Assembly: GCA_043771635.1 (NCBI GenBank)
Contig: JAYVHA010000017.1
Location: 36,761 to 100,760, forward strand
Origin: Candidatus Woesearchaeota archaeon
Lineage (GTDB): Archaea > Nanobdellota > Nanobdellia > Woesearchaeales > SKIA01
Length of the DNA: 64,000 bases
Reading direction: 5' to 3'
Part shown: in pieces, positions 2,477-56,038 of the stretch
How the letters are laid out: each line of letters starts with the position of its first letter
Position numbering within the stretch: the stretch's first letter is position 1
Position numbers and translations under genes: made by a program
The notes under the pieces: generated by a model
Database searches by the model: none
Seen by the model: only the letters and a program-made list of their open reading frames with translations
Told to the model about the DNA's origin: nothing

Positions 2477-2477
2477 A

Positions 2478-3232: not shown

Positions 3233-3284
3233 CTGATTTCTTTTTCAAATTTTTTTATTTCTCATCCGCGGTACGCGGCGGCGC

Positions 3285-10157: not shown

Positions 10158-10165
10158 TGCGGCGC

Positions 10166-10173
10166 TTTTTTTT
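10166..10173 (+). terminator. Oligo-T tract (archaeal-type terminator) after the 8460 gene
   Basis: 'GCGGCGCTTTTTTTT' lies 9 nt after the stop codon. Confidence 0.4.
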
Positions 10174-10216
10174 ATGCGTACGCTTAACTTAAAGCTAGAA
10201 TAACTGTGCTTGTAGT

Positions 10217-11092: not shown

Positions 11093-11117
11093 GTGATTGT
11101 TTAGTTGGTTTTTTGCT

Positions 11118-11184
11118 TAGCTTGATTCTTAGCTTGCGTTATTGTCGACTTGCTTTCTGCATAGCTTGCTCGTAGTGTAGCTTG
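11118..11184 (+). repeat. Four direct copies of TAGCTTG(C) in the intergenic region upstream of 11261
   Basis: TAGCTTG occurs at 11118, 11130, 11162 and 11178. A near copy, GACTTGC, is at 11148. Confidence 0.6.
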
Positions 11185-11231
11185 CCCGTTGTGTAATCAG
11201 CCTAATTTTAGAAAACGCCGTTCCCCAACTC

Positions 11232-11239
11232 TTTTATAC
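11232..11239 (+). promoter_or_regulatory. TATA box for the 11261 gene
   Basis: 'TTTTATAC' is centred 25.5 nt upstream of the ATG at 11261. Confidence 0.5.
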
Positions 11240-11260
11240 CGCTGCGCTCAGAATTAACAC

Positions 11261-25410: not shown

Positions 25411-25959
25411 ATGCTTGCCATCTCTGAACTTAGGCGACGGCGCATTCATCTTGGACTCACGCAGCATGACCTTGCAAAACTTGCCGGCCTAAGTCAAAGC
25501 CTTGTAGCTAAAATGGAAGCGGGTGCAATCGATCCGCGCTATTCAAGTGTAATCAAGATAGAACAAGCACTAGCAGGTGCGGAAAACGCGCGTGCCTCGC
25601 CATTAAGTTCAGTAATGCGCCGCGGCGTTGTTGGCGCGCGCCGTGATGAAAAACTCTCCGTTGCGCTCTCGCGTATGCGCGCAGCGGGTTTTAGTCAATT
25701 GCCTATTCTTGACGGTGACGCGGCAGTGGGCCTTCTTACGGAAGCCGGTGCACTCGACGCGCTTGCGGCAGGAAAAAATTTGGCAGCGCTGCGCGTGTCT
25801 GAAGTCGCCGACGCGCCACCGCCAGTGTTGCCAGGCAACACACCTTTACTTGTTGCGGTGCGCGTGCTTGAATCAGTTCCCTTAATTCTTGTTCGCGATG
25901 GCAAGAAACTTGTAGGTGTGGTTACTCGCAGTGACGTGCTAGGCTCTGTTCATCATTAG
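25411..25959 (+). CDS. XRE-type HTH regulator fused to a CBS-domain pair
   Basis: '[25 protein letters not shown]' is the HTH. The CBS-like segments include '[17 protein letters not shown]' and '[20 protein letters not shown]'. Confidence 0.8.
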
Positions 25960-27131
25960 TCCTTATGCGCTGGAGCTGACTTAACTGCGGCAACAAGTGC
26001 TTGCAATCGCGGCGTTTGCTCCCATGCGAATTCATTTCGACCAAAGTGTCCGTACGCCGCAGTTGTTTGATACTGTGGTGCGCGCAAATTTAGCGCTATT
26101 GTAATTGCATGAGGGCGTAAGTCAAAAGTTGCAAGTACTCCATGCTCGATTGACTCGATAGGCGCGGTTTCGGTGCCGAATGTTTCAACGTGCACACCTA
26201 CTGGCGCCGCAACGCCGATAGCGTAGCTTATTTGCACTTCGCAACGCCGCGCAAGTTTTGCTGCGACAATGTGCTTTGCTATCCAGCGTGCTGCATACGC
26301 GGCGGATCGGTCAACTTTTGAGGGATCTTTGCCGCTAAATGCGCCGCCGCCGTGACGACCTACGCCGCCGTATGTATCAACTATTATTTTTCTTCCGGTG
26401 AGGCCTGTGTCGCCATGCGGACCTCCAATTACGAAGCGTCCGGTTGGGTTACAATGTATTTCTGTTTTTGCGTCCAAATACTTTCCGCAAACTGGAATAA
26501 TGATGTGCTTGCGCACTTCGTCCCTCACATGATCAATACTAACTGATTCTCGGTGCTGAGTGCTCACTACTACTGCTGCGATGCGCACAGGAGTCTCGCC
26601 TCTGTATTCAACAGTTACTTGCGCTTTGCCATCGGGACCGAGGAACGGAAGTGTTCCATCTTTTCTGAGAATTGCAAGGCGGTGCGTGAGCTTGTGTGCC
26701 AGAACAATCGGCAGTGGCATGAGTTCAGTAGTCTCGTTGCACGCATAGCCGTACATTAACCCTTGGTCGCCCGCGCCCTGCTCATCCTCGTGCGCGCGGT
26801 CGACGCCTTGCGCGATGTCTGGGCTTTGTGCGTGCAGTGCGCTGAGTACTGTTGCTTCATCTGCAACGAACCCTAGTGCTGATTCGGTGTAACCAATTTC
26901 GCGCACGACTTTGCGAGCGATTGCAGTTGCATCCACTTGTCCTTTGCTGCTGACTTCACCTGCAATAACAAGAAGGCCTGTTGTTGCGAGGCATTCCACC
27001 GCAACGCGAGAGTTTGGATCCTGCGTCAGGTACGCGTCAAGAATCGCGTCGCGCACTTGGTCGCAAAGTTTGTCTGGATGGCCTTCAGTAACGCTCTCAC
27101 TTGTAACTAGAAATGGTCTATGGTCTGTCAT
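25956..27131 (-). CDS. metK: S-adenosylmethionine synthetase, bacterial/eukaryotic MetK type
   Basis: '[27 protein letters not shown]' and '[23 protein letters not shown]' are canonical MetK motifs. Confidence 0.95.
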
Positions 27132-30653: not shown

Positions 30654-30817
30654 GGCGCTCAATTGGATTGCTCTCTTTTTGTAGTAATCGCGCTTCCAGT
30701 GCAGCTATTGCAACTTCTATGTTCGCGATATTTTTGAGCTGCAAAAGTGGCTTGTTTGCCTCCAGACGCGATGGAGAAACCATATAAATCAACTCGGCGA
30801 AAAATGACTCGATACGG

Positions 30818-33800
30818 ATGCAGTACTATAGTGGTTCGCAGTCGGCTAAGCCTCTCCTGCTAGTTTGCTCCTTAATTTTTCTTATTGCTTTGGTAATCCC
30901 GGGCGCTACGGCTGTCGCTAAAATAACTGCTATAGAGTACGAAGGAACCGGACTTGTAAAAGTCGGCACACAGTACTTCATTATTCCTGACACTGTGGTT
31001 GATGGTGTACTACGCTTCACCGTTGATGAAGACACAACTGCATTAGTTATTGACATTGCTGGCCTTGATCAACGCTTAACTGATTCTTTGGCAAATACAA
31101 TTTCTACGAACCGTTGCGAAGAAAATGTATGTTCAATTCCAGTTGAATTCTTTGCAAAGAAGGGTTCTACTAAGAAACTAAGTTGGACTTGGGCTGACGT
31201 TGGCGGGCGCGCGAACACTGTTACTTCTACCATAGGGTTTGATACTGTGGCGCCGAAGCTTGATACAATCGGCACTGGTACTTGCAAAGTCGATTGTGCA
31301 GTTAAATCTGGCTCGAACGTTATTGTTGCGTATTTTACTGAAGCGGGACTCGGAATGAATCCTGCCACGACTAAATTAATCACTCCTGATGGTACAGTTT
31401 CTGCAACGTCGTGCGAGCGCGTGTCGTGTAAATTTAATGTTGAGTTAACGACAGGTGCGGAGGGCGATGTTGAATTTTCAATTGACCCCGTGTCAACAGA
31501 CCGAGCAGGGAATAAGGTTACTGGCGCCGATAAAAAATTCAATTTAGTAGTTGATAATGTAAAGCCGCGTATTCTTGGGATTACCGTTAAGCAGGGCAGC
31601 TCTGTAGTTCCAATTATTACTGGACCATTTACAGTTGCTATTAAAGTAAGTGACGAGTCTGCAGTTACTGGGTTTATTGATGCACGCGATGTTACTGGCT
31701 CCGCGGAAAAAGTAGAATTGAAATGTGCAAATGGGACTTGTCAGGCAGAGCTGAAACCAAAACTTGCACAAGGCGCAAAAACTGTATCTATAAGTATTGT
31801 TGATGCTGCCGGTAACACCGAATCCGCGGAGCGCACGGTTTCCATTGCGCGCCTTGTTGATGGAACGCCTGGAACTTATAGTACCACTGTTAAGATGTCG
31901 CCGGACACGATTGATGTAAACGCAGCTTCTTTGTTTACTACGAAAACGTTTATGGAAGTCAGTTTAATTCCGGAAGAAGGCGGTGAAGTTGCGTTTGTTC
32001 GCGCTACTAAGTGCGGGTTTAAAGTTGGAACACAGAACGCGCCACTAGCATTGCAGCAAACTGCACCTACAATTTTTGGTGCTTCAACTGATACACCTGT
32101 GCTTGCTTTGAACATCAAACCAATCGGCACGAATCTCGATGCGCGCTCTGGTACATTAATAATTACTTGCGAGCTTGAAGTGCGCTCTTACTCTAATGGT
32201 GAACTACTCAAGAACGCAACCAAAGTTAATGCAACAGGTCGTTTGCAAATAATTTCTAATCCGCTCGCGCCGGCAAAAGTAAAGGTATTGCAGAAAGAGG
32301 CGGCTGAACGTCAATTGAAGATTGACAAGGCTATTGGTGGAATAAACAAAGCTTATTCAGCAGGTCGAACGTTCTGCGAGCTTTATCAAACTGGACACCA
32401 AGTTCAGTCTGTCCTCGGCGGGGTAACAAGTACATTCGCAGGTATAGGAAATTTCTGGGCGCCGGCAAAGATTGTTGCGCGAGGTGCGGAGCAAGGAGGA
32501 AAGGCTATAGCGAAACCCATGGCTAAATTAGAAAAGGCAAACAACGGTAAAAAGTTCTGCAACATGCTCACTTGCAGTGCGCCAGGATTAGCCAATGAAC
32601 AAATTAGTGACTTCATGACTTTCGGTCTAGATGGAAATAACAATAAAGGTCGATCTGACAAAATTGCTAAATTTATGACAGGGGACAATAACGGAAATTC
32701 AAATGCATTCTTAGATCCTTACAAGTCGCTGCCAATTGCTTTAACTCAAGCATGCGTGCCTGCTGTCATGCACCACCTTAACACGTGGCGAAGCATCGAA
32801 TGTTCATACTCTCAGTGCATACAAAAAGACGTTCCAACAGGAGTGCCAGTAACTGTTTGTAGACAAGAGCGTCAATTCCAGCTATGTACAAAAGTAACTG
32901 GATCAGTGTTTTACATTACGCCATTTGGCGCTTTGCAAATGCTACGGGACCGCGTTGTAAAGTATTTGTCGGATCCAGTACTGCAGGGGTCTTTGATAAT
33001 TTATGAGAGTTGCTTTAAGTTAAGCGAGGGAAATGAAGCAGCCATGGTTGCAAGTGGTTCATGCCGCTTGTACCGCGGTATAAAAAATGCTAATAATTAT
33101 GCGCAATCCGTAAGCGGCATAGTTCAGGCAGCTAAGGCTTTCCAATCTCCAAAAGATTGCACTGTTTCCACGGCGTTTGAAGACCCGTACTTCAACCAAG
33201 CAGACCCTGAAGCATACTGCACCTCAAGCTTCTGTACTTCAGGGCCGTACGTTGGATATCCTGCAAGTACAACAACAGGCTTTGAATCAGGAGGTAAGGA
33301 TCAGGAAGATATTCCTATTGTAGAAATAAAGACACAGTACGCTGTTATTGTTCCGCAGAGCGGCAGTCCTAGTAACAATGCAAATCAAGTAAAAGCAGCT
33401 GGTGGTTCATTATTGGATCGAGATGAGCAGAAGCGTGTGGCAGCAACAATTACTGATCCGAAAGTTCGAGCAGAATTCGAAAAAGGCACTATAGCATTTA
33501 TGAAAGTTGATGAGAAAGTTGTAGCTGCTGATCATCGTGAAAACATAGCCCGAGGAGTAAGTCAAATTGCAGCTAATACCGAACTGTTCAAAGACAGTAA
33601 TGCGATGAAGGACATACAGGACAAAATTGATACTAATCGAGCTGAAATAGCGAAGCTTAAAGCGCCGCAAGCAACTCCTGATATTAAATTACCTGATCCT
33701 AAAACGATAGCTATTAGCGATTCGGTTGTAGGTAGCACGCAGCCAGTAATTAATACACGAGGCTTCCCAGTGTTTGCTGTGCCTAAACCTGAAGAAGTTA

Positions 33801-35722
33801 AAGTGCCTGACGTTAAAAGTCAAAATCCTGTTATAGATCATTTAGCCGAAGTAAAAAATTCTCTACCTAGAGGTAAGACTGGTGACATTAACCAAGTTTC
33901 GAAATTGGTTCCTTCGACACTTTCATACGGAATGGGTCCAGTTGAAAGTATCCGTTATATTGACAATACTAATGGTGGTATGATGACTCAGTATGATGCG
34001 GTAGTAATTTACAAAAGTGGTGATGTTATTGCTTTAAGCGGTGAAGTCATCGATAACAAATGGGTAATCAAAAGTACAATTGGTGAGGCAAAAGGTAGTT
34101 CGGCTGTTATCAAAGAATTAACTCTTACTGGAGAAATAGGGTCAAAAATAGCTATTGGTGAGTCTAAATTTACTAGGTCAGGTAGTACTGAACGAAAGGT
34201 AGGTGAGTCTCAGCCCGATCCTACAAAGAAAGAAACGCCGCCTCCTGCCGTAAAGACCGCCGACACACCAGCGCAACAGAAGGCTGCAATGGAAGCTTGG
34301 ATTGATATAAACATTAGAGATGCAAGCCTCAAGAAGGAAATGTTAACTGACATTAAAACTGAAAGTTTGAAAACCAATCCGAATTATGTTTCCTTATCGA
34401 CTACGCTAAAGACTAAAGCTGACAATTATATAGCTACTTCTGCCGTAACTAAAAACGGAATCCCTGCGCCACCAGTTCCCGGAGCGTCTGATCAAGTTGT
34501 AAATACGCAAATGGAACTGGTAGAATGGGCTAAAAAGCAGGGAATTACTTCGGATGAATTGTATGCTGCCTTTGCCGACAACGGAGCTAACCAGGAGAAT
34601 ATTGCAAATGGCGACCCTGCAGGAGTCAAGGCAGCTATGTATGAAGCTGCTAAAACTTTAGCAGCAAAGCAAGCAGTTCGTAAGGAACTTCTGCAAGGCA
34701 CCTGGACGCTTGCGCGCGCTGAACAGGCAAATAAGGAAGAAGCACAGAAATACGTAAAAAATGTTGCTGAAGCTAAGGTAAAATTATACGCTGATGATTT
34801 GGTTAAGTTCCGCCCAGACCTTGACGAAGCAGCCAAAACTATCCTTGTCGCAGATTATCAGAAAAAGGTTAATGAAATAATGGCTGCTGATACAAGTGCA
34901 ACGCAGAAAGATCTAAGTCTTACAGCTGCGGCAAAGGAGTTCGAAGAAAAGAATATCAAACCGCAGCGCGATGCAGCATTAAAAGAGAGGCAAGCGCAAG
35001 ACCTAAAGAACGAGAGAGAGAAGAGAGAAGTTGCAGATTATATTAAGCGTTCCAGAAAAGGATCAGGCGAGAAGTTTATTGATTCGCTAGGATTTGGATT
35101 GCAGACGTCGTCAACAGTTAGTATGTTGTCCAACTTCGGTTTTGCAAAGGGCCTTAGGGGCGCGACAACCTGGCCCTGGGAAGAGGATTTAACAGTTGGC
35201 GGCGACTGGGCTCAGAAGTTCTCAGAAGAAGTGTGCTTGGGTACAAGCGCGCGCCGCTCCCCAGAGTCGCTTACAATTAATACTAATGGACAAGTAGGCT
35301 TGACGTTTAATGCAGTGAGAGTTACTAGTGTAGAGCAAAGAATTGTAGACGCATTAAACGAGCTTAGTAAGCTCGATGAGGAACTAGGCGTGTCCGTTCC
35401 GCCTGCGGAGCTTACTGAAGTGCCAAAGTTCAGGTACATCATTAGCGGTCGCATCGCGACTATGCCACTTGAAGATGAATCTGAAGAACCGATCACTTAC
35501 GCACTAACTCTTGACGGTTCAGAAGGACGAAGCAATCGCTTAGCAGAAAACAGTTTGCAACCTGGCGCAACGGTAAGTTGGTCCGGAGCATCAAGAATTA
35601 AGCTAGAATCAACCACGCGCTATGACCGAGTATGCGTGGAATTCAGCGTACCAATAAAAACACTCTACCCGAGAAGCGAAATTGATGGCAATGAAGCATG
35701 TTTGCCTATTGGAGACAACTAA
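30818..35722 (+). CDS. Giant (1634 aa) secreted or membrane-anchored surface protein. It has N-terminal Ig-like repeats, a Cys-rich module, a Lys/Ala/Glu-rich helical region and a C-terminal domain.
   Basis: The N-terminal hydrophobic segment is 'LLLVCSLIFLIALVIPGATAVA'. Repeats carry 'DTVAPKL' / 'DNVKPRI' and paired Cys residues. There are 13 Cys between 32372 and 33240. Confidence 0.8.
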   Translation: MQYYSGSQSAKPLLLVCSLIFLIALVIPGATAVAKITAIEYEGTGLVKVGTQYFIIPDTVVDGVLRFTVDEDTTALVIDIAGLDQRLTDSLANTISTNRCEENVCSIPVEFFAKKGSTKKLSWTWADVGGRANTVTSTIGFDTVAPKLDTIGTGTCKVDCAVKSGSNVIVAYFTEAGLGMNPATTKLITPDGTVSATSCERVSCKFNVELTTGAEGDVEFSIDPVSTDRAGNKVTGADKKFNLVVDNVKPRILGITVKQGSSVVPIITGPFTVAIKVSDESAVTGFIDARDVTGSAEKVELKCANGTCQAELKPKLAQGAKTVSISIVDAAGNTESAERTVSIARLVDGTPGTYSTTVKMSPDTIDVNAASLFTTKTFMEVSLIPEEGGEVAFVRATKCGFKVGTQNAPLALQQTAPTIFGASTDTPVLALNIKPIGTNLDARSGTLIITCELEVRSYSNGELLKNATKVNATGRLQIISNPLAPAKVKVLQKEAAERQLKIDKAIGGINKAYSAGRTFCELYQTGHQVQSVLGGVTSTFAGIGNFWAPAKIVARGAEQGGKAIAKPMAKLEKANNGKKFCNMLTCSAPGLANEQISDFMTFGLDGNNNKGRSDKIAKFMTGDNNGNSNAFLDPYKSLPIALTQACVPAVMHHLNTWRSIECSYSQCIQKDVPTGVPVTVCRQERQFQLCTKVTGSVFYITPFGALQMLRDRVVKYLSDPVLQGSLIIYESCFKLSEGNEAAMVASGSCRLYRGIKNANNYAQSVSGIVQAAKAFQSPKDCTVSTAFEDPYFNQADPEAYCTSSFCTSGPYVGYPASTTTGFESGGKDQEDIPIVEIKTQYAVIVPQSGSPSNNANQVKAAGGSLLDRDEQKRVAATITDPKVRAEFEKGTIAFMKVDEKVVAADHRENIARGVSQIAANTELFKDSNAMKDIQDKIDTNRAEIAKLKAPQATPDIKLPDPKTIAISDSVVGSTQPVINTRGFPVFAVPKPEEVKVPDVKSQNPVIDHLAEVKNSLPRGKTGDINQVSKLVPSTLSYGMGPVESIRYIDNTNGGMMTQYDAVVIYKSGDVIALSGEVIDNKWVIKSTIGEAKGSSAVIKELTLTGEIGSKIAIGESKFTRSGSTERKVGESQPDPTKKETPPPAVKTADTPAQQKAAMEAWIDINIRDASLKKEMLTDIKTESLKTNPNYVSLSTTLKTKADNYIATSAVTKNGIPAPPVPGASDQVVNTQMELVEWAKKQGITSDELYAAFADNGANQENIANGDPAGVKAAMYEAAKTLAAKQAVRKELLQGTWTLARAEQANKEEAQKYVKNVAEAKVKLYADDLVKFRPDLDEAAKTILVADYQKKVNEIMAADTSATQKDLSLTAAAKEFEEKNIKPQRDAALKERQAQDLKNEREKREVADYIKRSRKGSGEKFIDSLGFGLQTSSTVSMLSNFGFAKGLRGATTWPWEEDLTVGGDWAQKFSEEVCLGTSARRSPESLTINTNGQVGLTFNAVRVTSVEQRIVDALNELSKLDEELGVSVPPAELTEVPKFRYIISGRIATMPLEDESEEPITYALTLDGSEGRSNRLAENSLQPGATVSWSGASRIKLESTTRYDRVCVEFSVPIKTLYPRSEIDGNEACLPIGDN

Positions 35723-37846
35723 ATGAGACGCGGACAACTTTCTTTATTTCTAATCATCGCCGCTGTCATTATAATTATTGGCGGACTTGCTACTTACCTT
35801 TTGATGCGCGTAAATTCCGAGCCAGACACTACGATTGGTGTTAGAACTGATCTGCAACCAGTAGAAGCGTTTGTTACAAGTTGTCTCGAACAATCTACTA
35901 GGGCATCACTAGTGGCAATTGGAGAAACGGGAGGTTATGTAGATCCAGTAGCGGATGGCTACGTAGCAAATCCGCTACGCCCAACAGAATCAAAAGCATT
36001 CGAGCCATTTCAGAATCGGCCTGCTATGCCTTATTGGAGTTACCTTGCAAGCGCAAATGATTGCACTACTTGCGTTGAAGCTAGCGAAAAGCCAGCACTT
36101 CTCGGCGCCGCTCCGGCAATTCAAGGTCAATTAGAAAATGATATTTCGCAGCGCACTCTTACTTGTATTGATGAATTTTCAACCTTTGCTGAGCAGTATA
36201 CGATAGTAGCTGACAAGGATCCTGTAGTGAAAGTTACTTTCGGTGTTCGAGACACTATAGTGTCAATGAGTTATCCAATAAAAATCGAATCAAGCGGTGG
36301 CACAGCGCTCGAGCGCAGCGAGTTTATTGCAAAAGTTGATGTTCCGCTGAAGCAATTGTACGATACTGCTTCGTCTATTGTTGCGCAGGCGCAGGCTAGT
36401 GGCTTCTTTGAAGGCCTTACTTTGGAAGCAATTACTTTGGAGTCAACGGACGATAAATTGCCACCAATAGCGAGCGGCTACGATCTAGGTTTTTCACCCG
36501 GTCCAATCTGGGCTTTGTTCCAAGTACGCCAAACTGTTGCAACTGCGCTGCAGCGCGACATAGGAATTGTGCAGTTATTTGCTTCGAGAAGTATGAGCTT
36601 TGTAAAAAGTGGCGACTCTACAACTGATAGAATCTACGCAAACTATTATTTTAATATTCCCGAGGATGTAAGTTCACTAGACGCCTCGTTCATATACCTT
36701 AGTCGATGGGAGCCGTACGTTAGAGTAAGTCCCGGTGGACAAATAATTAAGCCTGACCGCTTGTCGTCGCACTTATTCTTCTTGCCGCAGTTTAAGATGC
36801 TAGATTTCCAATACGACGTAAGTTATCCTGTACTAGTGCAGCTAAGTGCAGATACAAGTCAAGGGCCGTATGTGTTCCAATTCCCAATAGAAGTAAATAT
36901 GCGAAACAATAAGGTGTTATCGTTCGCTCCTTACGGCGATGACAATACTGCGCAAGAGTCTGTGTGTGGGGATGCAGAGGCAATAGGAAGTGTAGTGACG
37001 GTTACAACCAAGGATAGTTCTGCGGATGCTCCAATGACTGCTTTAGTTACTTATGAATGTTTGAGTGACGCTTGTTCATACGGCGAATCAGAAAATGGGC
37101 GCTTAACCGCTCAACTTCCGCCTTGCGTTGGAGGCGCACTAGTCGCTGAGCGTGAGGGCTTCCGAACAGCTCGTGTTTCAATAGACAGTATATCTTCAGA
37201 AAGCCGCCAAGTGGATATGAAATTAACGCCGCTGAAAGAAACTACGGTGGCTGTTCGTCCAATGATAATTGCTAGAGAATCTCGAGGTGGTACCGTTGAC
37301 AAGCCTGAACTTGGCGCTTGGGTGCAACAAGGCGAACTAGGCTCTTTTGATAAGCCGTACAAAGCAATCATTACATTCGTTCCAGTTGATGATCCTGAGT
37401 ACGCACAAGTGGCTGTAGTTCCTGCGCCTGAAGACAGCACTCCAACAAACCCTGTTCAACTCGCGCCTGGCGACTATGATGTTACTGCAGTAGTGCTACA
37501 AAGTCTTACTGAAGTACATGTTTTGCGAGGCCGTGAGATTTGTGGAGGGGGAGTACTTGGAATAGGGGACACCTGCGAAACTATTCCCGATATTAAACTT
37601 GGAGAAGGCGGTACAGTGACTCTTGAGGATGGTACTGAAGCGCAGGCGCCGGCCGGTGAAATATACATTGGAGGAATGGTGCGTGATGAGACCACCTCGC
37701 GAATGACTATTACGGCTGAAATGCTTGGAGACGGAATTTTGACGGTACCAGTAATTATTATTTCATTAGCGGAATTACAAGTTATTGAGGATATGGAAGC
37801 GCTGGATCAGCTTGATGAATTTAGTGCTGACTTGTGGCTAGAATAA
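35723..37846 (+). CDS. 707-aa protein with a class III (prepilin-like) signal peptide
   Basis: 'MRRG|QLSLFLIIAAVIIIIGG' is the signal. The ATG directly abuts the stop of the giant gene (TAAATG). Confidence 0.75.
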   Translation: MRRGQLSLFLIIAAVIIIIGGLATYLLMRVNSEPDTTIGVRTDLQPVEAFVTSCLEQSTRASLVAIGETGGYVDPVADGYVANPLRPTESKAFEPFQNRPAMPYWSYLASANDCTTCVEASEKPALLGAAPAIQGQLENDISQRTLTCIDEFSTFAEQYTIVADKDPVVKVTFGVRDTIVSMSYPIKIESSGGTALERSEFIAKVDVPLKQLYDTASSIVAQAQASGFFEGLTLEAITLESTDDKLPPIASGYDLGFSPGPIWALFQVRQTVATALQRDIGIVQLFASRSMSFVKSGDSTTDRIYANYYFNIPEDVSSLDASFIYLSRWEPYVRVSPGGQIIKPDRLSSHLFFLPQFKMLDFQYDVSYPVLVQLSADTSQGPYVFQFPIEVNMRNNKVLSFAPYGDDNTAQESVCGDAEAIGSVVTVTTKDSSADAPMTALVTYECLSDACSYGESENGRLTAQLPPCVGGALVAEREGFRTARVSIDSISSESRQVDMKLTPLKETTVAVRPMIIARESRGGTVDKPELGAWVQQGELGSFDKPYKAIITFVPVDDPEYAQVAVVPAPEDSTPTNPVQLAPGDYDVTAVVLQSLTEVHVLRGREICGGGVLGIGDTCETIPDIKLGEGGTVTLEDGTEAQAPAGEIYIGGMVRDETTSRMTITAEMLGDGILTVPVIIISLAELQVIEDMEALDQLDEFSADLWLE

Positions 37847-37890: not shown

Positions 37891-37898
37891 TTATAAAT
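37891..37898 (+). promoter_or_regulatory. TATA box for the 37920 gene
   Basis: 'TTATAAAT' is centred 25.5 nt upstream of the ATG at 37920. Confidence 0.5.
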
Positions 37899-37919: not shown

Positions 37920-39782
37920 ATGACTAAAGGCGCGCATAAGGGAGATTATGTTACAGAAGTAGTTCCTGCAGCGCAAGCGCCTGTTCCAGACTCGCAGCCA
38001 GAGCAATCTGAAGCAACAATTGCTGACGCAGTTGCGAATCCGCAAGCGCAAGCGGCGTTAGCAGCGCGTGTCGACGCGATGCGCCCGCAACTTGAAGCTT
38101 TCCAAAATAAATTAATGGAGCGCTTTAGTGACTATATTCTTGGCACGGCAATTCTCCCGCCGCTGCCAGACCGGCCTGATAAAACCGCGATGCTCATCTT
38201 AATTGATGACACAGACTCAAAGAAGATGGCGAAGTCCGAGCTACGAGAAAAGCTCCATAATATCTTCACACAAGAAGCAACAAACATCGACCCGAATCTC
38301 GAGCCGGAAACACTCCTCCTCAGCGAACTATGGGGTTTCTGCTTCGACGCGAAGTACGACGTGCTAGGCAACATTGCGCAAGCAACTATACTCTTTGACA
38401 AAGGTATGCTCGGCGCCGTAAAACTAGCGGAAACGCACAAGCAAATGGTGCTTAAGAAGTTCGAGAAGTACATTGTGTGCTACGTTCTCGCAGGTTCGCT
38501 CACGCAAGGCACAGCAACAACCAAGTCGGACGTTGACGTCTTCATCGTAATCGACGACACTGACGTAAAGAAGATGACGCGAGCGGAGCTAAAAGACAAG
38601 CTTCGCGCAATCATTATTGACATGGGCTACCACGCCGGAGAACTCACTGGTATCACAAACAAAATCAACATTCAAGTTTACATCCTCACTGACTTCTGGG
38701 AGAACATAAAGGAAGCGAACCCGGTAATTTTCACTTTCTTGCGTGATGGCGTTCCGTTCTACGACCGTGGCGTATTCATGCCTTGGAAGCAACTTCTCGA
38801 AATGGGCAAGATTAAGCCGAGCCCGGAAGCAATCGACGCATTCATGTCACAAGGGGACCAGTGGCTTAAGCGCGTCTCGCTAAAACTTAAAGAAATCGGC
38901 ATGGAAGACTTCTTCTGGGCAACCTTAACGCCAAGTCAAGCCGCCCTTATGCTGTACGGCTTGCCGCCGCCGACGCCAAAAGAAACGCCGAACGTCATGC
39001 GCGACATCTTCGTAAAGAAAGAAAAATTACTTACCGACAAAGACGTTGATACGCTAGCTAAAGTAATTCAGTTAAGAAAGGACCTCGAGCACGGCGACCG
39101 CACAAGCGTAACAGGCGCCGAAATTGACGCGTTAACAATTGAAAGCGAAGCGTACCTTAAGCGCCTGCAAGAATTGTTCGAAGCCATTAACGCGCGAAAA
39201 GAAGCAGAGAACGTGCTTCACGCGTATGAGTCGACAGTTACTGCAATCCGCGACGCATTAAGATTGGTGAATGTCAAAGAAAGTCCTGAAGCGAAACTCG
39301 GTGAGCTCTTCGACAAACACTTAGTACACTCTGGCCTTGTCGCAGAGAAGTACAGTCGTTACGTGCAAGACATAGTCAATGCAAAGAAACTATACGACAA
39401 AAAGAAGCTAACCAAAACAGACATTGCGGAAACAACAAAGCAAGCTAGAGAATTATTCAAAGTCCTAATTGAGCACGTGCAGCGCTCCCGAACGCGCGAA
39501 CTTGAGCGCGTGCGCATGAGAATCCGCCACGGAGAGAAAATAGGTGAAGTTCTATTCCTGCGCCAGCATCTGCTTGTAGTGCGAGATGTGCAGGCGCAAG
39601 AAGGGTTTATGCTCGGCGCGTATGAGTCCTCAGGAGCGGTAACCAATCTGCATGACGTAACGCCTGAAGAGTTTGAGCAAGCATTAATTGAGCCGCAGCC
39701 AGCAGAGCTTGTTGGCGTGCAAGCAGAAACGCTTACTGCGCTGCGAGCAGTGTTCGGCGCTGAAATGGAAATTTTACTTTAA
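37920..39782 (+). CDS. Tandem nucleotidyltransferase-fold protein (degenerate plus intact copy) with a long helical C-terminal region
   Basis: The intact copy is 'LAGSLTQGTATTKSDVDVFIVIDDTDVKKMTRAELKDKL'. The upstream degenerate copy is 'MLILIDDTDSKKMAKSELREKL'. 'ANPVIFTFLRDGVPFYDRGVFMP' is paralogous to 18400..19314. Confidence 0.7.
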   Translation: MTKGAHKGDYVTEVVPAAQAPVPDSQPEQSEATIADAVANPQAQAALAARVDAMRPQLEAFQNKLMERFSDYILGTAILPPLPDRPDKTAMLILIDDTDSKKMAKSELREKLHNIFTQEATNIDPNLEPETLLLSELWGFCFDAKYDVLGNIAQATILFDKGMLGAVKLAETHKQMVLKKFEKYIVCYVLAGSLTQGTATTKSDVDVFIVIDDTDVKKMTRAELKDKLRAIIIDMGYHAGELTGITNKINIQVYILTDFWENIKEANPVIFTFLRDGVPFYDRGVFMPWKQLLEMGKIKPSPEAIDAFMSQGDQWLKRVSLKLKEIGMEDFFWATLTPSQAALMLYGLPPPTPKETPNVMRDIFVKKEKLLTDKDVDTLAKVIQLRKDLEHGDRTSVTGAEIDALTIESEAYLKRLQELFEAINARKEAENVLHAYESTVTAIRDALRLVNVKESPEAKLGELFDKHLVHSGLVAEKYSRYVQDIVNAKKLYDKKKLTKTDIAETTKQARELFKVLIEHVQRSRTRELERVRMRIRHGEKIGEVLFLRQHLLVVRDVQAQEGFMLGAYESSGAVTNLHDVTPEEFEQALIEPQPAELVGVQAETLTALRAVFGAEMEILL

Positions 39783-39944
39783 TTATTTCGCGTAGTTTTC
39801 AAGATTGATATTGTTGTCGCGTCCATTATCGGATATGCTCCGCGGAACATATAATACTTATTGTGCTTATATGTCTATATAGTAAATAATGGAACTTCAA
39901 TTATAAAATGGCTTTTCTTCGTACTGAACAGCGCTGTTATCGAT

Positions 39945-39985
39945 AATTCGTTTAGATTTTCTCACTTAATGAGAGTAAACGAATT
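39945..39985 (+). promoter_or_regulatory. Imperfect hairpin/dyad upstream of the CBS gene
   Basis: AATTCGTTTA (39945-39954) pairs with TAAACGAATT (39976-39985), with an inner TCTC/GAGA. It lies about 30 nt upstream of the TATA 'ATATAAAT' at 40014-40021. Confidence 0.35.
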
Positions 39986-40041
39986 TTCGGGATGATCATC
40001 GCACGCGGTTATCATATAAATGAAAACGCTCTCCTTAAATT

Positions 40042-40581
40042 ATGAAAACTGGCTATGTTGTAGGTGACGCAATGACAACAAAACCCGTTACAATCGGGCC
40101 ATCGTTATCAGTGCGCGACGCAGCGCATATAATGCGGGACAAAGGAGTAGGTTCGCTGCTGATTGTAGATGATCATCATGTACTATTAGGCATCGTAATT
40201 GCAGAGGATTTTGTATCGCGTGTAACTGCGGAGGCGCTAGACCCTGACACGACTTTGATTAAAGATATTATGACAACTAAGCTTATTGACATTCGGCCGG
40301 AAGCTGACGTGCATGATGCTATGGAAATTATGTCGGCGCACAACATTTTCCACTTGCCTGTTCGTGATGGTCACCACAAGCTTTTAGGATTTTTGACGTT
40401 TAAGGACGTACTAAAAATAGAGCCGGCACTTTTTGAAATACTTGCAGAACTTGCGCAAACGCGTAATAGGCCAGGTGTAAAAGGACAGGAAGGATATTGC
40501 GCTGAATGTGGCAACTTCGCCGAAGATTTAGTGGTTGTTGAAGGCAAGGTTCTGTGCAGTTACTGCAGCGAGAATGCTTAG
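40042..40581 (+). CDS. CBS-domain pair protein with a C-terminal zinc ribbon
   Basis: 'VGDAMTTKPVTIGP...' and 'IFHLPVRDGHHKLLGFLTFKDVL' are CBS-like. The C-terminal 'CAECGNF...CSYC' is the zinc ribbon. Confidence 0.8.
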   Translation: MKTGYVVGDAMTTKPVTIGPSLSVRDAAHIMRDKGVGSLLIVDDHHVLLGIVIAEDFVSRVTAEALDPDTTLIKDIMTTKLIDIRPEADVHDAMEIMSAHNIFHLPVRDGHHKLLGFLTFKDVLKIEPALFEILAELAQTRNRPGVKGQEGYCAECGNFAEDLVVVEGKVLCSYCSENA

Positions 40582-46337: not shown

Positions 46338-47558
46338 TTATACCGTAAACTTGCCGTCCTTGTAGATTACGACTGTCTTGCCATTTCGAAGCGAGGCAGT
46401 GACTACGCGGTCAAGGGTCGACACGATGTCCACATGCGTCTTTGCAAAATTAAACCCTAGGGCGTCGAGCTCCGCCTGAGAGCGTTGCTCAGTGCCTTTG
46501 TATGATTCAGGAAACGAGCTACCGAGTGCAATGTGCGTATTGCCGGTTGGTTTGAAAACGCCTTTTTCCCAGTGGCCGCCAGTATTTTCATCGAATAGTG
46601 TTGTTCCCATAAATCGTTCAATTTTGGAAATTCTGCTGTCGGTGAGGCTAAATTCTCCTAATCGATTGGCTCCAGGAATGGCAAGCAATGCCTCGAGCAT
46701 TGGCGCTCCAACTTTCGCTTCTGCCTGCGATACAATTCCATCTTTGAACGTTAGTTGTATATCTTGAATCCGTCCGCCCTGATAGTATAGTGGTTGATTA
46801 AACCGCATACGTCCGTCTATTCGTCGATAGTCTGGACTAACAAATACTTCAAAGCTGGGAATATTTGTTCCTCGTCCGCCGAGCCATTTTCGGTTACTGC
46901 CAATTCCGATGGTTATGTCTGTGTCTTGCGCTTCAATGTGTACTGAATCCATCTGAAGGTCGGTGAGCCAATCGCGGATGGTGCAAATGTGCTGCTGCGC
47001 TTCGCGATTACGTTGCACTGGATTTGTGTCGTAGAGAAAACACGCTTTTGCGATTTGATCCCAATACTCTGTTTTGGTGAGTTTTGCCTCGCGCGCCATG
47101 GCTGCAGTACCATACAGGCCATAAGTTTCGTTAAACGCGCCGAGGGCTTCCTTTGCATCGATGCAGCTTCGGCTTACGGTAAGAATTTGGTTCCGCGCTG
47201 CTCGCTTTTCAACCGCAATATGCTGCAGCTCAGTCGGATTGTCCTCTGCAATAATGTAGATGCGGTGATCTGCTTCGCTGATTCGTGCGCGAATCATTTG
47301 TTCCGGTTGCCAGCTAATTTGCTCAAGCGAGCCGTGTTCCAGGAGGTTTCGGGTGAGCCCTGATGGTATATAGTGGACGAGTGGTTGGCCGCCTGCAGCA
47401 AGGACTGCTTGGTGGAGTGGTTCCAAAAATGGTTGCGCTGCTTCAGGTACGTGCAGAATCGTAACAGCGCCGGGCTTCATTCCTGCGCCGCCATTGAGTC
47501 CTGCTTCTACAAGGACTTGTGCGTACGAGTCGAGGAGCGAGCGCTCAGGTACTCTCAT
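46338..47558 (-). CDS. Aminopeptidase, M29 (AmpS/PepS/aminopeptidase T) family, copy A
   Basis: 'NIPSFEVFVSPD', 'GEFSLTD', 'TLFDEN' and 'GNTHIALG' are family motifs. It is the tandem paralog of 47589..48797. Confidence 0.85.
   Translation of the reverse strand: MRVPERSLLDSYAQVLVEAGLNGGAGMKPGAVTILHVPEAAQPFLEPLHQAVLAAGGQPLVHYIPSGLTRNLLEHGSLEQISWQPEQMIRARISEADHRIYIIAEDNPTELQHIAVEKRAARNQILTVSRSCIDAKEALGAFNETYGLYGTAAMAREAKLTKTEYWDQIAKACFLYDTNPVQRNREAQQHICTIRDWLTDLQMDSVHIEAQDTDITIGIGSNRKWLGGRGTNIPSFEVFVSPDYRRIDGRMRFNQPLYYQGGRIQDIQLTFKDGIVSQAEAKVGAPMLEALLAIPGANRLGEFSLTDSRISKIERFMGTTLFDENTGGHWEKGVFKPTGNTHIALGSSFPESYKGTEQRSQAELDALGFNFAKTHVDIVSTLDRVVTASLRNGKTVVIYKDGKFTV
46360..46391. repeat. 32-nt block identical to 47611..47642 (3' ends of the two aminopeptidase paralogs)
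   Basis: ttgtagattacgactgtcttgccatttcgaag is present in both copies, while the rest of the genes are only about 40-45% identical at the protein level by eye. Confidence 0.85.
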
Positions 47559-47588
47559 GCAGTAGTTATTTTGTGGTTATTTATAATC

Positions 47589-48797
47589 CTATACTTGGAA
47601 CTGGCCGTTTTTGTAGATTACGACTGTCTTGCCATTTCGAAGTGTGGCAGTCACGGTTCGGTCGCTTGTTGCAACGATATCGGTGTGTACTGCGCTGTCG
47701 TTATAGCCCATGGTTTCCCATTGCTTCTTGGTTACTTTTGCCGGGTCGCTCTGGTAGCAGTCGTGGTACGCTTTGCCAAGCGCAAGATGCGTGTTTCCGT
47801 AGCGTCCGCCAACGTTTTCGTCAAAGAGCGTGTCTGCCATGAACTTAGTGATTTCTGAGTGACGGCTGTCAGTTAGTGAGTATTCGCCGATCATGTTTGC
47901 GCCCTTTTCGGCAATCATTTTCTTGAGCCATGCGGCGCCAGTCTTTGCTTTGACATCAACGACTTTGCCGGCTTTGAAGGTTAATGAAATGCCGGTTGCT
48001 TTGTTGCCGTAACGGTACAATGGTTCAGTAAAAGTAATAGTGCCTTCTGTGCGCCGAAAGTCTGGGCTTGTGAAGCACTCAAAACTTGGAATGTTTCGGC
48101 CGGTGCCGCCGATCCATTTGTGCTTTGGATGGAAGCCGACAATTAGGTTGGTGCCTGGCGCGCTTACGTGGACGTGGTCGATTCCAAGTTTGGTGAGTTT
48201 CGCCGCAACCGCTTGAATTTCCTTTTGCGTGCGGTGCCAGCGTGCAACAGGGTCTTTTTCATTCAAGTAACAGGCTTTGATGATTTGGTTCCAGTATTCT
48301 TTCTGGGAGAGGCCAGCTTCTTTTGCCATCGCAGGCGTGCCGTACATTCCGAGCGTCCAGTGGAATTTGCCTTTGTTCTCTTTCTCGTTCATCCACTCAC
48401 TCATTGGCTTGTTCGCGCGGCCTGAGCGCATGATCTTTTGCGGATCGATGCCGGAGAGTTCCTGCATATTTGTTTCCGCAATAATTGCGACGTAGTGGTC
48501 TGCTTGGTCAACCATTCCTTTGGCGAATTTCGCGGGAAAAAAGTCGAGCTGGGCGTCGCTTGCAAGCTCGAAATACGCGCGTTGTAGCCCGTCTGGCGTG
48601 TAGCGCATTAATGGCTGCCCGCCCGCTCGAAGTACTTCTTTGTATATCTCAACTAGTAGTGGCCTCGCGGCTTCTGGAACTCTTAGAACGACGGTTTGGC
48701 CTTTCTTTATGCCGTGGCCGTCGCCAAGTCCAGCGTGTATAAGCACTTTCGCGTAGCGTTCGAGAATCTGCTGTGGAGGAGTGTAGATTTTTGCCAT
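47589..48797 (-). CDS. Aminopeptidase, M29 family, copy B
   Basis: 'NIPSFECFTSPD', 'GEYSLTD', 'TLFDEN' and 'GNTHLALG' are family motifs. Confidence 0.85.
   Translation of the reverse strand: MAKIYTPPQQILERYAKVLIHAGLGDGHGIKKGQTVVLRVPEAARPLLVEIYKEVLRAGGQPLMRYTPDGLQRAYFELASDAQLDFFPAKFAKGMVDQADHYVAIIAETNMQELSGIDPQKIMRSGRANKPMSEWMNEKENKGKFHWTLGMYGTPAMAKEAGLSQKEYWNQIIKACYLNEKDPVARWHRTQKEIQAVAAKLTKLGIDHVHVSAPGTNLIVGFHPKHKWIGGTGRNIPSFECFTSPDFRRTEGTITFTEPLYRYGNKATGISLTFKAGKVVDVKAKTGAAWLKKMIAEKGANMIGEYSLTDSRHSEITKFMADTLFDENVGGRYGNTHLALGKAYHDCYQSDPAKVTKKQWETMGYNDSAVHTDIVATSDRTVTATLRNGKTVVIYKNGQFQV
47611..47642. repeat. 32-nt block identical to 46360..46391
   Basis: See 46360..46391. Confidence 0.85.
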
Positions 48798-54113: not shown

Positions 54114-54308
54114 TCTATTCTTCTGAAAAAGTTAATTTGGTCTTTTGTAATTTACTATATAGAAAATAATAAGGCTTCAATTAAACAATTCTTCTTGTAT
54201 GGTGCTTGCGCTTATTTACTCCCCTTCAAAGTAACAACTAACTTCTTAAAGGCTTAATTTGATTTACTAGCTTAGGTGCGATTGCGCCTATCATACTGTG
54301 TACATACT

Positions 54309-55097
54309 ATGAAGTCAGACGCTCGCGCAAAACAACCACAATGGCTTGAGCACGTGCACTCCATCTTTCAGACATTGCTTGTTGTGTATTTAGTATTGCT
54401 ATTGGCTAATCAATTCAAGCCTTTGGTGTATCCGCTATATCTGAACATTCTTCTTGGCGTTGTGTTGGTGTTAGGTGCCATTTCTGTGTGGACTCGGCCG
54501 GAAACTGCGACGCATGAGCCTGCGCCGCGTATGCGCGACTATTTGTTAGTTTGGGCGCTTGGTATTATTGGTTCTGTCTTAGTGTTTTTGAAAACTGGTT
54601 CGCTTGGCTGGTTGCGTTATGTACTGACTGGTTTGTCTGGCGCTTTGATTGTACTTTTAGGGTATGTTGTGTACTCGCCTGAGCAGGAAGAGAAGCCGGT
54701 CTATTTGTCTTTAACTTGGCAGAAAGTGTTGATTGCATTAGTTGCTTTGTTAGTTGTTGCATTAGCGTTACTTCCGTGGCTTGGGTTTGCTTCGTTTAGA
54801 ATTGTGTTTGGCGCGGTGTTCGTGCTTTTTGTTCCTGGTTTGTCATTATCCTATGCGTTCTTTTCTGAAACTGAAATTGATGTTTTGGAGCGATTTGCGT
54901 TGTCATTTGCACTGTCCATTGCTGTTGTGCCGATTTTAGTGTTCTACTTGAATTTGATCGGGGTTAAAGTGTCAGTATTTAGTGTGCTGTTTGTTGTTTC
55001 GTTTGTAACGGTGCTAGGCTACTGGATTGCCCGGCGCAAACACGCAATTAGCTTTTTCTTCAAGCACAAGGGCTGGAGGACCATGAAGCTATGGTAA
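54309..55097 (+). CDS. Polytopic membrane protein, DUF1616-like
   Basis: It has multiple TM helices. 'FVLFVPGLSLSYAFF' resembles the DUF1616 'LPGYAL' segment. The alternative GTG start is at 54276. Confidence 0.55.
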   Translation: MKSDARAKQPQWLEHVHSIFQTLLVVYLVLLLANQFKPLVYPLYLNILLGVVLVLGAISVWTRPETATHEPAPRMRDYLLVWALGIIGSVLVFLKTGSLGWLRYVLTGLSGALIVLLGYVVYSPEQEEKPVYLSLTWQKVLIALVALLVVALALLPWLGFASFRIVFGAVFVLFVPGLSLSYAFFSETEIDVLERFALSFALSIAVVPILVFYLNLIGVKVSVFSVLFVVSFVTVLGYWIARRKHAISFFFKHKGWRTMKLW

Positions 55098-56038
55098 AAC
55101 TCGTCATTAACATTCCTTGTTTTAATGAAGAAGGAACGTTGCCTTTGGTGCTGTCGTCTTTGCCGACTTCTTTGCCTGGTGTGTCTGTTATTGAAGTGCA
55201 GATCGTTGATGACGGGTCAACGGACGGCACTGTTGCTGTTGCTACGTCGTTTGGGGTGGATCGCATAATACGGCACAAGAAGAACTTAAGGTTAGGTGTT
55301 TCGTTTAAGGACGGCGTTGACGCGGCTTTAGCAGCTGGGGCCGACATTATGGTGAACATGGACGGCGATAACGCGTTTCCGGCAGACAAAATTGGGTTGT
55401 TGATATCACCAATATTATCTGGTCGGGCGGACATTTCCGTTGGTAATAGAACTCCATGGATGGTTCCGCACTTTTCTTTAATGAAAAGATTCTTTCAGTA
55501 CTTTGGGAACATGTTGATTCGCTCTATTGCAGATACGGGCGTGCCTGACATGGTTTGCGGTTTCAGAGCGTATTCTAGGGACGCAATGCTTAGGTTGAAC
55601 GTTACTACCAAATTTTCGTATGTTTTGGACGTTATTGTACAAGCTTCGCGAAAAGGAATGGTTATTGCGTCAGTTCCAATTGAAAGTCGCGTTGCAACTA
55701 GGCCTTCGCGGTTGTTTAAGAATATCTTTGAGCACATGTACAAAAGTGGTGTTAATATTGTACGATTATTTGTTTTATATCAACCATTTAAGACATTCTT
55801 GTACTTGTCTTTAGTATTTTTAATCCCTGCGTCTGTGTTAATTACACGTTTTATGATATTGCGATTCCACTTTGACTATCCAGGAAGCTTATTTTTATCC
55901 TTAATACTCGCCGCCGTCTTGCTTATCCTTGGCGGCTTAATGCTCACGCTCGGCGCACTGGCTGAACTCACCGCTCTAAACCGCAGGCTCTCGGAGGAGC
56001 AACTCTACTTGGCTCGCAAGTACCACTACGACGGATGA
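55091..56038 (+). CDS. GT2 glycosyltransferase (dolichyl-phosphate sugar synthase-like) with C-terminal TM helices
   Basis: 'VINIPCFNEEGTLP', 'QIVDDGSTDGT' and 'NMDGDN' (DxD) are present, followed by two C-terminal hydrophobic helices. Confidence 0.85.
   Translation: MVKLVINIPCFNEEGTLPLVLSSLPTSLPGVSVIEVQIVDDGSTDGTVAVATSFGVDRIIRHKKNLRLGVSFKDGVDAALAAGADIMVNMDGDNAFPADKIGLLISPILSGRADISVGNRTPWMVPHFSLMKRFFQYFGNMLIRSIADTGVPDMVCGFRAYSRDAMLRLNVTTKFSYVLDVIVQASRKGMVIASVPIESRVATRPSRLFKNIFEHMYKSGVNIVRLFVLYQPFKTFLYLSLVFLIPASVLITRFMILRFHFDYPGSLFLSLILAAVLLILGGLMLTLGALAELTALNRRLSEEQLYLARKYHYDG

Follow-up and report, generated by a model that had tools for sequence, protein, structure and literature searches.

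Two adjoining genes on a 64-kb stretch of contig JAYVHA010000017.1 from a Candidatus Woesearchaeota archaeon (assembly GCA_043771635.1; the whole 64,000-nucleotide stretch is called the window below, and positions are counted from its first letter) are best explained as a compact, two-gene version of a cell-surface gene cluster that is conserved in, and specific to, Woesearchaeota-like DPANN archaea. Gene A (30818..35722, + strand), assigned from its open reading frame (ORF), its composition and a family search, encodes a giant secreted, anchorless protein of 1634 amino acids (aa) with 27 Cys; gene B (35723..37846, +), assigned from its ORF and an alignment of homologues, encodes a 707-aa protein with a class III (i.e., prepilin-type) signal, 10 Cys and no N-x-S/T sequon. 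The stop codon TAA of A abuts the start codon ATG of B (...GACAAC TAA ATG AGA...). An earlier note on this DNA had given the same ORF coordinates, sizes and TAAATG butt joint, all of which proved exact, and gene callers on independent assemblies agree: the 1634-aa and 707-aa pair is called identically in ENA ERZ27314288 (a 321-kb contig) and in Logan SRR23617304, which rules out assembly errors and frameshifts as its source, and the B protein is found letter for letter on 9 contigs from independent assemblies. Regarding function, we tentatively favor, at slightly less than even chances, the reading in which the secreted A fibre is kept at the cell surface by B, a pilin-like anchor or filament subunit, and serves in adhesion.

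The two genes are co-conserved across related genomes, a check that the earlier note had named and that is borne out by local profile searches spanning 62 fetched loci. These searches gave 49 distinct full-length B genes, and an A-family gene was found less than 400 nt from 25 of them, 0.4-4 kb from another 10, and near none of 2, both of which had at least 5 kb on each side; the remaining 12 were uninformative. Thus, for 35 of the 37 informative B genes, an A-family gene lies at most 4 kb away. From B outward, an A-family gene belongs to the cluster in 19/21 informative loci, and from A outward B is adjacent in all informative loci (20/20, namely two large Woesearchaeota contigs and 18/18 species-representative loci). 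In most relatives, A and B either abut or share a few bases; in the two closer ones (38-40% identical), a 1191-aa or 1233-aa gene overlaps the start of B by 4 nt, and the synteny of the window is kept, with the methionyl-tRNA synthetase (MetRS) gene, the pair, an NTP-transferase, a CBS protein and two small genes. Furthermore, several arrangements recur among the loci (A-B, B-A, A-cl2-cl4-B(-cl3) and cl3-B1-A1-A2-cl4-B2, where cl2 is a small secreted protein, cl3 a single-pass protein with two cytoplasmic helical repeats, and cl4 a five-transmembrane (TM) protein, none of these proteins being known to Pfam), so that the A-B linkage persists through inversion of gene order, gene insertion, and fission or fusion. 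This is the pattern expected of physically interacting partners, and such an interaction between A and B may be proposed from it. Also counted for the linkage were two traits shared by both genes, a depletion of sequons and an unusual GC content at third codon positions (GC3, 0.36); the latter amounts to 0.358 for A and 0.360 for B, compared with ~0.45-0.54 for neighboring genes, and fast evolution or acquisition as one unit are possible reasons.

Within the window, the pair appears to be transcribed separately from its surroundings. A TATA-box-like element, TATAAAT (30783..30789, +), was read directly ~30 nt upstream of the start codon of A, and is likely the archaeal promoter of a near-leaderless A-B transcript; the identical TATAAATC element occurs at 37892-37898, ~22 nt 5' of the gene downstream of B. 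With such an element before both A and the gene that follows B, A-B seems to constitute its own two-gene unit. The sequence following B (37920-40581, +) encodes a ~600-aa protein with a weak NTP_transf_2/Polbeta domain, then a CBS-domain protein, and this arrangement recurs downstream of the A/B cluster in many related genomes, loci L006, L010, L017 and L022 among them.

Comparison with the fuller clusters suggests how the compact form is built. Searches for cl3 and cl4 in the window found neither. The 'second giant' encoded in fuller clusters has a K/E-rich middle, to which a spacer region of A corresponds, and its end (...YDKICIEFE...) matches that of A (...RYDRVCVEFS...); with middle and end shared in this way, the A of the window looks like a fusion of the A1 core with this second protein. 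In loci L006/L026, A and B flank a separate gene of 365 aa, and the C-terminus of its product matches the C-terminal domain of A (E=7e-24), a match that overlaps one to the small secreted cl2 protein (E=1e-6); the direct profile-profile match between the A domain and cl2 is weak (13%), and their link rests on this bridging protein, matched by both profiles. From these comparisons of sequence, the A of the window appears to be a fusion of two or three genes that are separate in relatives. Five loci (L049, L050, L055, L058 and L060) also harbor a second B paralogue (B2) of ~620-640 aa downstream of cl4 (e.g., L050 13531-15420), with the same [KR][GA]/Q site as B, the slash marking here and below the predicted point of cleavage. 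In three related metagenome contigs (L037, L038 and L039, B at ~9818-12428), the B gene consists of two consecutive ORFs of ~572 and ~291 aa, either by true fission or by a shared frameshift.

The N-terminus of B is a conserved class III site. Residues 1-31 (35723..35815, +) comprise a leader, MRRG, a predicted prepilin-peptidase site between G4 and Q5, and then one hydrophobic helix; the sequence reads MRRG/QLSLFLIIAAVIIIIGG (in its cleavage-site form, MRRG/QLSLFLIIAAVIIIIGGLATYLL) and fits the FlaFind-type rule for archaeal class III signals. Among ~35 distinct homologues of B, the closest of which is 47% identical, position -2 is K, R or H (occasionally S), position -1 is G, A or S, and position +1 is always Gln, followed by a single hydrophobic helix (family consensus M-K-R-G-Q-I-T-L-F-I-I-I-G). 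This context is kept down to 22% overall identity and also in the B2 paralogues, and the prepilin-type signal that the earlier note had seen on the 707-aa protein is therefore not a plain TM anchor. We infer from the site context that a prepilin peptidase would cleave B at G4/Q5, and it is this context which suggests that B belongs to the pilin superfamily. A twin-arginine translocation (Tat) signal, which the 'RR' had suggested, was ruled out, as homologues carry KK, KR, RK or a single K. Two weak similarities to pilin-related proteins were obtained: Pfam Tad PF13400 (TadE/G-like) matched two B relatives with E values of 0.003-0.011 and 16.5-18.3 bits, below the 22.3-bit cut-off, the alignment starting at the G/Q site, and residues 8-42 of B matched by profile a structure deposited as 'pilin' (PDB 6w8u, E=0.033).

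Protein A bears the features of a secreted, modular surface protein. Its hydrophobic N-terminus, for which the earlier note had allowed either a signal or an anchor, proved by hydropathy to be a Sec-type signal peptide and no anchor: residues 1-33 (30818..30916, +) have a basic n-region, a core with the hydropathy peak at 13-31, and the end ...GATA/VAK, the putative cleavage site being placed by the AxA rule. Hydropathy revealed no further TM segment in A beyond this one. Residues ~35-480 (30920..32260, +) form 4-5 immunoglobulin (Ig)-like beta-sandwich domains with CxxxC/CxxxxC loops and DxAGN motifs, as judged from a model, Cys pairs and the alignment. The model, made with alignment-based AlphaFold for residues 32-900 only, has a pLDDT of 69.6 overall, and of 85-95 over most of the stretch of 4-5 beta-sandwiches that extends to ~residue 480. 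Thus, the 'about four Ig-like repeats' of the earlier note are found again as four N-terminal modules each with a short CxxxC/CxxxxC loop (Cys 100/105, 156/160, 199/204 and 303/308), to which the model may add a fifth sandwich. Within this array, D, G, N and C columns are invariant in the alignment of the A family, and matches of the family to the Ig-like Pfam models Big_13/Big_3_3 were all sub-threshold. A Foldseek search of the model against the PDB returned both tandem-Ig adhesins (SiiE, RTX adhesin extenders and GhpA) and S-layer proteins (csg 7ptp, SbsB and SbsC). All Foldseek matches of A and B to the PDB are domain-level ones to beta-sandwiches, with query TM-scores (TMq) of at most 0.18, the best one for A being Haloferax csg 7ptp (0.18), and at this level the modelled folds do not separate an adhesin from an S-layer protein.

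The Ig-like array is followed by residues ~483-806 (32264..33235, +), which the model and the alignment describe as a 60-residue helix and a helical bundle with invariant Cys that are probably disulfide-bonded; in the model, helices are found at positions 452-512 and 517-670 (pLDDT 57-82), with low confidence further on. The 'Cys-rich module' of the earlier note is Cys-rich indeed, and its modelled shape is this helix and alpha-helical bundle, not a beta-rich knot. Helix and bundle constitute the most conserved signature of the A family, the module is found again adjoining B genes, and searches of the PDB by sequence and by fold gave no match for it. In the A-like proteins of L007, L013, L017 and L018, helices near the Cys-rich module (~residues 750-1016) score as TM-like, and the A of the window is less hydrophobic there. 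Residues ~900-1400 (33515..35017, +) are, by composition, a Cys-free and largely helical spacer rich in K, A and E. The earlier figure of 'about 500 residues' was generous in this respect, as the K/A/E share is high (33-44%) at 1200-1400 and moderate (18-29%) at 900-1200; against the PDB, the matching region of the A family gave only noise of the coiled-coil type. At its end, A carries a conserved, putatively beta-rich domain (...RYDRVCVEF...C...; residues ~1510-1634, 35345..35719, +), which the family alignment delimits more exactly than the 'globular C-terminus' of the earlier note, as a domain of ~110 residues. These last ~110 residues recur at the very end of more than 27 family members, are free-standing or separately encoded in other lineages, and are our candidate for the end of A that docks to B.

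A word-indexed search with full-length A gave A alone, its candidate lists being probably swamped, and an exhaustive HMMER search was then used, which delimited a family of 763 representative clusters at E<=1e-3 (284 at E<=1e-10), all of whose members are annotated as 'hypothetical protein'. The best 149 representatives have a median length of 1065 aa and a median of 28 Cys; an N-terminal hydrophobic segment is present in 130/149 of them and a C-terminal one in 1/149. Neither A nor 34 members of its family matched any Pfam or NCBIfam family above threshold, S-layer families included, and likewise no Pfam, NCBIfam or PHROG family was found for B; over A, B and the accessory proteins, Pfam, NCBIfam and PHROGs yielded, besides the sub-threshold Ig-like matches, a single PG_binding_1 match, on one relative. 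The named homologues of A and B all come from metagenome-assembled genomes (MAGs) labelled Candidatus Woesearchaeota, 'Nanoarchaeota archaeon' or 'Nanoarchaeia', and some homologue-bearing MAGs are labelled 'uncultured Methanosarcinales', seemingly a placeholder. Both families are undescribed and apparently restricted to a Woesearchaeota-like DPANN lineage; to judge from its sequences, the source lineage itself is Woesearchaeota-like and devoid of close representatives, and an episymbiotic lifestyle is assumed here from the labels of the related MAGs.

Beyond its signal, B has a large ectodomain. Residues ~45-400 (35855..36922, +) form, by alignment and model, an alpha/beta ectodomain with invariant Cys54/114/117/148 and the motifs PYW103-105 and YDVSYP364-369, for which searches of PDB and viral structures gave no informative fold or sequence match. 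Residues ~424-700 (36992..37822, +) form two beta-sandwich domains similar to CnaB, transthyretin and carboxypeptidase-regulatory domains, according to the model and Foldseek; the domain-level matches include the transthyretin-like domain of carboxypeptidase D (root-mean-square deviation 2.9-3.0 over ~80 columns), and further ones CnaB2, the SpaA/SpaC pilins, Bacillus anthracis TIE and SlaB (8qox_B, probability 0.99). The model of B (pLDDT 70.7 overall, pTM 0.63) shows helices at 3-31 and 45-69, joined by a low-confidence linker (32-44), a low-confidence loop at 74-122, and a 4-stranded sheet at 159-205. A viral origin of B was considered and is unsupported, as the Foldseek matches among viral structures are sandwiches of the tail-fibre type, at domain level only.

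Building on what is described above for gene structure, conserved cleavage context, topology, predicted domains and linkage, the mechanism that we propose would be as follows. A and B would be made from one transcript, and as the genes abut or overlap in most relatives, their amounts are probably coupled. A would be exported by Sec and lose its signal peptide, after which it would have no membrane anchor of its own. B would behave as a type IV pilin-like protein, in which a prepilin peptidase encoded elsewhere cuts after Gly4, so that Gln5 heads the hydrophobic helix; this helix would either retain B in the membrane or allow a type IV filament machine to lift B onto a short stem or a pilus tip. 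The ectodomain of B would hold A, most likely via the conserved C-terminal domain of the latter, and the spacer, the Cys-rich helical bundle and the Ig-like array of A would project outward as an adhesive fibre contacting cells or surfaces. Both the participation of a filament machine and the adhesive role are thus proposals. In their favor count the likeness of A to tandem-Ig arrays such as SiiE, RTX adhesins and GhpA, that of the CnaB or transthyretin-like domains of B to Gram-positive pilins and adhesins, and the type IV filament ATPase and platform genes near the cluster in L016, L018 and L034. None of the three outcomes that the earlier note had named as refuting its reading was observed. 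The earlier note had spoken of an 'attachment or pilus-tip apparatus', and while the coupling of a class III protein to a giant surface protein stands, a role in attachment or at a pilus tip would be part of the same conjecture.

The known systems that come closest, by analogy of working, offer partial parallels to this mechanism. Modular pilins such as Streptococcus sanguinis PilB/PilC, CofB of enterotoxigenic Escherichia coli (ETEC) and GspK of the type II secretion system (T2SS), reviewed in PMC8179133, resemble B in carrying a class III signal and a hydrophobic helix on a protein far above the size of structural pilins, and in having bulky modules, including beta-sandwiches, which in modular pilins are thought to be displayed at the filament tip for binding. 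Conversely, B is archaeal, is with 620-890 aa larger than CofB, lacks a pilin signature at threshold and has no filament machinery alongside; it has Phe at +5, and in the model its helix sits on a variable linker outside any compact pilin module. PilY1/PilC with their minor pilins, and the PilY-like adhesins of subsystem 4A of the archaeal type IV filament (TFF) systems, also consist of a large Sec-exported non-pilin adhesin presented by neighboring pilin-like proteins (PMC8179133; bioRxiv 10.64898/2026.04.22.720090); A differs from these in its Ig-like domains and Cys-rich helical bundle, in having no PilC/PilY1 Pfam match at E<=0.1, and in a C-terminal domain of only ~110 residues.

A parallel in gene layout is that of the pairs CofB-CofJ and TcpB-TcpF, in which the gene of a large class III-signal subunit adjoins that of a Sec-exported anchorless protein, as in A-B, and where the secreted partner binds the C-terminal beta-domain of the subunit and mediates attachment (PMC6048534, PMC9565799, PMC10120004). 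However, CofJ and TcpF are small, whereas A is a fibre-like giant of 1634 aa; the bacterial pairs lie inside complete pilus operons, unlike A-B; there is no similarity to them in sequence or global fold, and a contact between A and B is itself a proposal. The same layout, an anchorless secreted protein next to a large minor pilin in one operon (PMC9565799, PMC10120004, PMC6048534), would also agree with A being a released factor, which B, capping a short pseudopilus, pushes through the envelope in the manner of TcpB-TcpF, and which would then exert its effect remotely or on a partner cell; the presence of T2SSE/T2SSF genes near the cluster in three loci points the same way. We regard this as very unlikely: A has its own Sec signal peptide, and in a monoderm archaeon with no outer membrane a piston is not obviously needed; moreover, the build of A, with its Ig array and helical spacer, looks structural rather than diffusible, and the accessory genes of relatives encode membrane proteins, not secretion ATPases.

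Several observations weigh against the proposal that B is a pilin-like holder of an adhesive A fibre. The mature start of B, Q-L-S-L-F, has Q at +1 and S/T at +3, but a conserved Phe or Tyr at +5 in place of the Glu of bacterial pilins and of QxSxE, the motif of euryarchaeal class III signals (Pfam PF04021). Glu5 is not obligatory in all archaeal pilins, and its absence weakens membership in the pilin superfamily without excluding it. The B of the window matched no pilin model of Pfam or NCBIfam; in its structural model, the variable low-confidence linker parts the N-terminal helix from the body and no classical pilin alpha1/beta-sheet module is seen, and pilin-fold structures, with the C-terminal half of a continuous ~50-residue alpha1 packed on an antiparallel sheet, were absent among its Foldseek matches. 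No prepilin peptidase or ATPase, as the earlier note had stated, and no platform gene was found when every larger ORF of the 64-kb window was scanned and a motif search was added; polytopic proteins with the GxGD[VIAL]K motif of A24-family peptidases were absent from the window and from all fetched loci, and most related loci show no filament machinery within 10 kb. Besides, the housekeeping synteny (MetRS, NTP-transferase, CBS) and the apparent single copy of the pair fit a constitutive part of the envelope at least as well as a host-specific adhesin, and the fold matches include S-layer proteins too.

Some of these points would favor a reading of B as a type II membrane protein, held by an uncleaved N-terminal signal anchor and unconnected with type IV filaments, in which [KR][GA]Q is kept for another reason, such as topology or packing, and which still forms a joint surface pair with A; the lack of a pilin match at threshold, the flexible linker between helix and body, and the absence of peptidase and pilus genes from the window agree with it, as does a preprint according to which DPANN genomes lack components of type IV pili (bioRxiv 10.1101/2020.05.14.094862). 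Nevertheless, we hold it to be rather improbable. The invariant Gln at +1, small residue at -1 and basic one at -2, conserved in distant homologues and in paralogues, make up precisely a prepilin-peptidase context, which a signal anchor is not known to require. Furthermore, genes of filament machinery are encoded in loci labelled Woesearchaeota: T2SSE ATPase genes, with or without T2SSF/platform genes, lie less than 10 kb from the cluster in L016, L018 and L034 only, separated from it by housekeeping genes. A newer survey reports TFF systems in DPANN, as well as large adhesin-like proteins in archaeal TFF loci (bioRxiv 10.64898/2026.04.22.720090). Finally, the window itself contains a canonical small pilin-like ORF, which the earlier note had missed, of 160 aa (6966-7448, +), with an archaeal pilin-like N-terminus (...KSRRG/ISPLIATVLLLAFAVAIG) and no Pfam match; at least one ordinary pilin with a class III signal is thus probably produced from this genome. 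Pilus machinery beside this ORF (6-13 kb) was looked for and rejected, its neighbors being a helix-turn-helix (HTH) regulator, NFACT-R, an AP-endonuclease-like protein and an ABC transporter.

The distance between B and any filament machinery has a precedent in the archaeal 'bindosome', as thousands of class III-signal binding proteins are encoded apart from the machinery (bioRxiv 10.64898/2026.04.22.720090). Like B, bindosome proteins have a large non-pilin ectodomain and a class III signal, and are encoded away from TFF genes, with peptidase and base elsewhere in the genome; B differs in having neither a substrate-binding-protein domain nor an ABC transporter as neighbor, and in its pairing with a giant secreted protein. 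Since class III proteins of the bindosome type are also unlinked, the unlinked position of B is not unusual and does not exclude the proposed mechanism.

The synteny and the fold matches bear more directly on the idea that A and B make up a two-component S-layer-like envelope, with A as the lattice canopy and B as the membrane stalk, as in SlaA/SlaB, the class III-type N-terminus of B being only an anchor. The pair is almost universal among Woesearchaeota-like genomes, where it lies in synteny with housekeeping genes, and a large canopy gene beside a smaller anchor gene mirrors slaAB. Both SlaA/SlaB and the putative S-layer protein MJ1_0160/NEQ300 of cultivated Nanobdellota (bioRxiv 10.1101/2023.10.27.564410; PMC11420986) resemble A-B as a large, Ig-rich, anchorless secreted protein and a smaller membrane-bound one encoded by adjacent genes. 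MJ1_0160, the most highly expressed gene of Nanobdella aerobiophila, encodes a putative S-layer protein of 1000 aa with 5 Ig-like folds and no C-terminal TM segment (bioRxiv 10.1101/2023.10.27.564410), and the build of A (signal peptide, ~5 Ig-like folds, no C-terminal TM segment, family median of 1065 aa) is similar to that of MJ1_0160/NEQ300 as compared by description only. Among the fold matches, csg 7ptp (with the best TMq), SbsB and SbsC for A, and SlaB 8qox_B for B, agree with an S-layer, although all of them are at domain level only.

Nonetheless, the S-layer appears unlikely, if by no means negligible, to us. Neither protein matches a described S-layer family by sequence, an outcome that the earlier note had said would refute its own reading, in Pfam and NCBIfam searches with A, B and 34 A-family members or in sequence searches of the PDB. 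Archaeal S-layer proteins are sequon-rich, MJ1_0160 having 15 sites (bioRxiv 10.1101/2023.10.27.564410), whereas A contains 3 sequons where 11.6 would be expected (P about 0.0005), and B contains none where 1.9 would be. The ratio of observed to expected sequons is ~0.75 family-wide, and the closest relatives are depleted too, unlike the distant B homologues. The membrane anchor of B is N-terminal, pilin-like and set in a conserved cleavage context, in contrast to the C-terminal TM segment and coiled coil of SlaB. The A family is also Cys-rich, with its median of 28 Cys, which is atypical of S-layer proteins. As to expression, the effective number of codons (ENC), a proxy that is weak in such genomes, is 53.9 for both A and B, inside the window range of 45-59, so that codon bias is no stronger than in neighboring genes.

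A further extension concerns the fuller forms of the cluster. With two B proteins, two giants, the five-TM protein and the single-pass protein, these may together with the compact form represent an undescribed, DPANN-specific cell-contact apparatus, in which pilin-like subunits would carry a giant fibre whose Cys-rich helical bundle would engage or insert into the envelope of a partner; we deem this distinctly improbable, and the TM-like helices near the Cys bundle of some homologues were noted in connection with envelope insertion.

Elsewhere in the window, which contains four tRNA genes and no rRNA gene, other features deserve a brief record. A run of glycosyltransferase and PMT_2-like genes at 54276-63977 has a GC content of 0.35-0.44 and a GC3 down to 0.29, markedly below the rest of the window, and may be a surface-glycan island. 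Two tandem paralogous genes of M29 (thermophilic metalloprotease) aminopeptidases lie at 46338-48797 (-), and a glycogen-type cluster, with a glycogen synthase, a GH57 enzyme and a GT4 glycosyltransferase, at 698-5764 (-). The S-adenosylmethionine synthetase encoded at 25956-27131 (-) resembles the bacterial-type MetK and not the archaeal type, the motif having been judged by eye.

The pair bears on how DPANN archaea make contact with other cells, hold on to them and draw on them. Cryo-electron tomography (cryo-ET) of cultivated Nanobdellota has revealed S-layers, filaments and a large, envelope-embedded organelle of attachment, structures whose constituent proteins are unidentified (PMC11420986; bioRxiv 10.1101/2023.10.27.564410), and A and B are concrete candidates: two large unannotated families, A with its 763 representative clusters and its partner B, genetically locked together and with the topology that a surface complex would have. 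A class III-signal protein of very large size combined with an anchorless Cys-rich giant outside a pilus operon is a new combination on a known theme. If B is cleaved as predicted, the modular-pilin idea, documented mainly in bacteria, would extend to very large archaeal proteins encoded away from pilus operons, whereas if the pair is an S-layer, envelope proteins of a major uncultivated archaeal order would have been identified. Should the cluster serve in cell contact, it would become a candidate for components of the attachment organelle and the intercellular filaments of cultivated Nanobdellota (PMC11420986).

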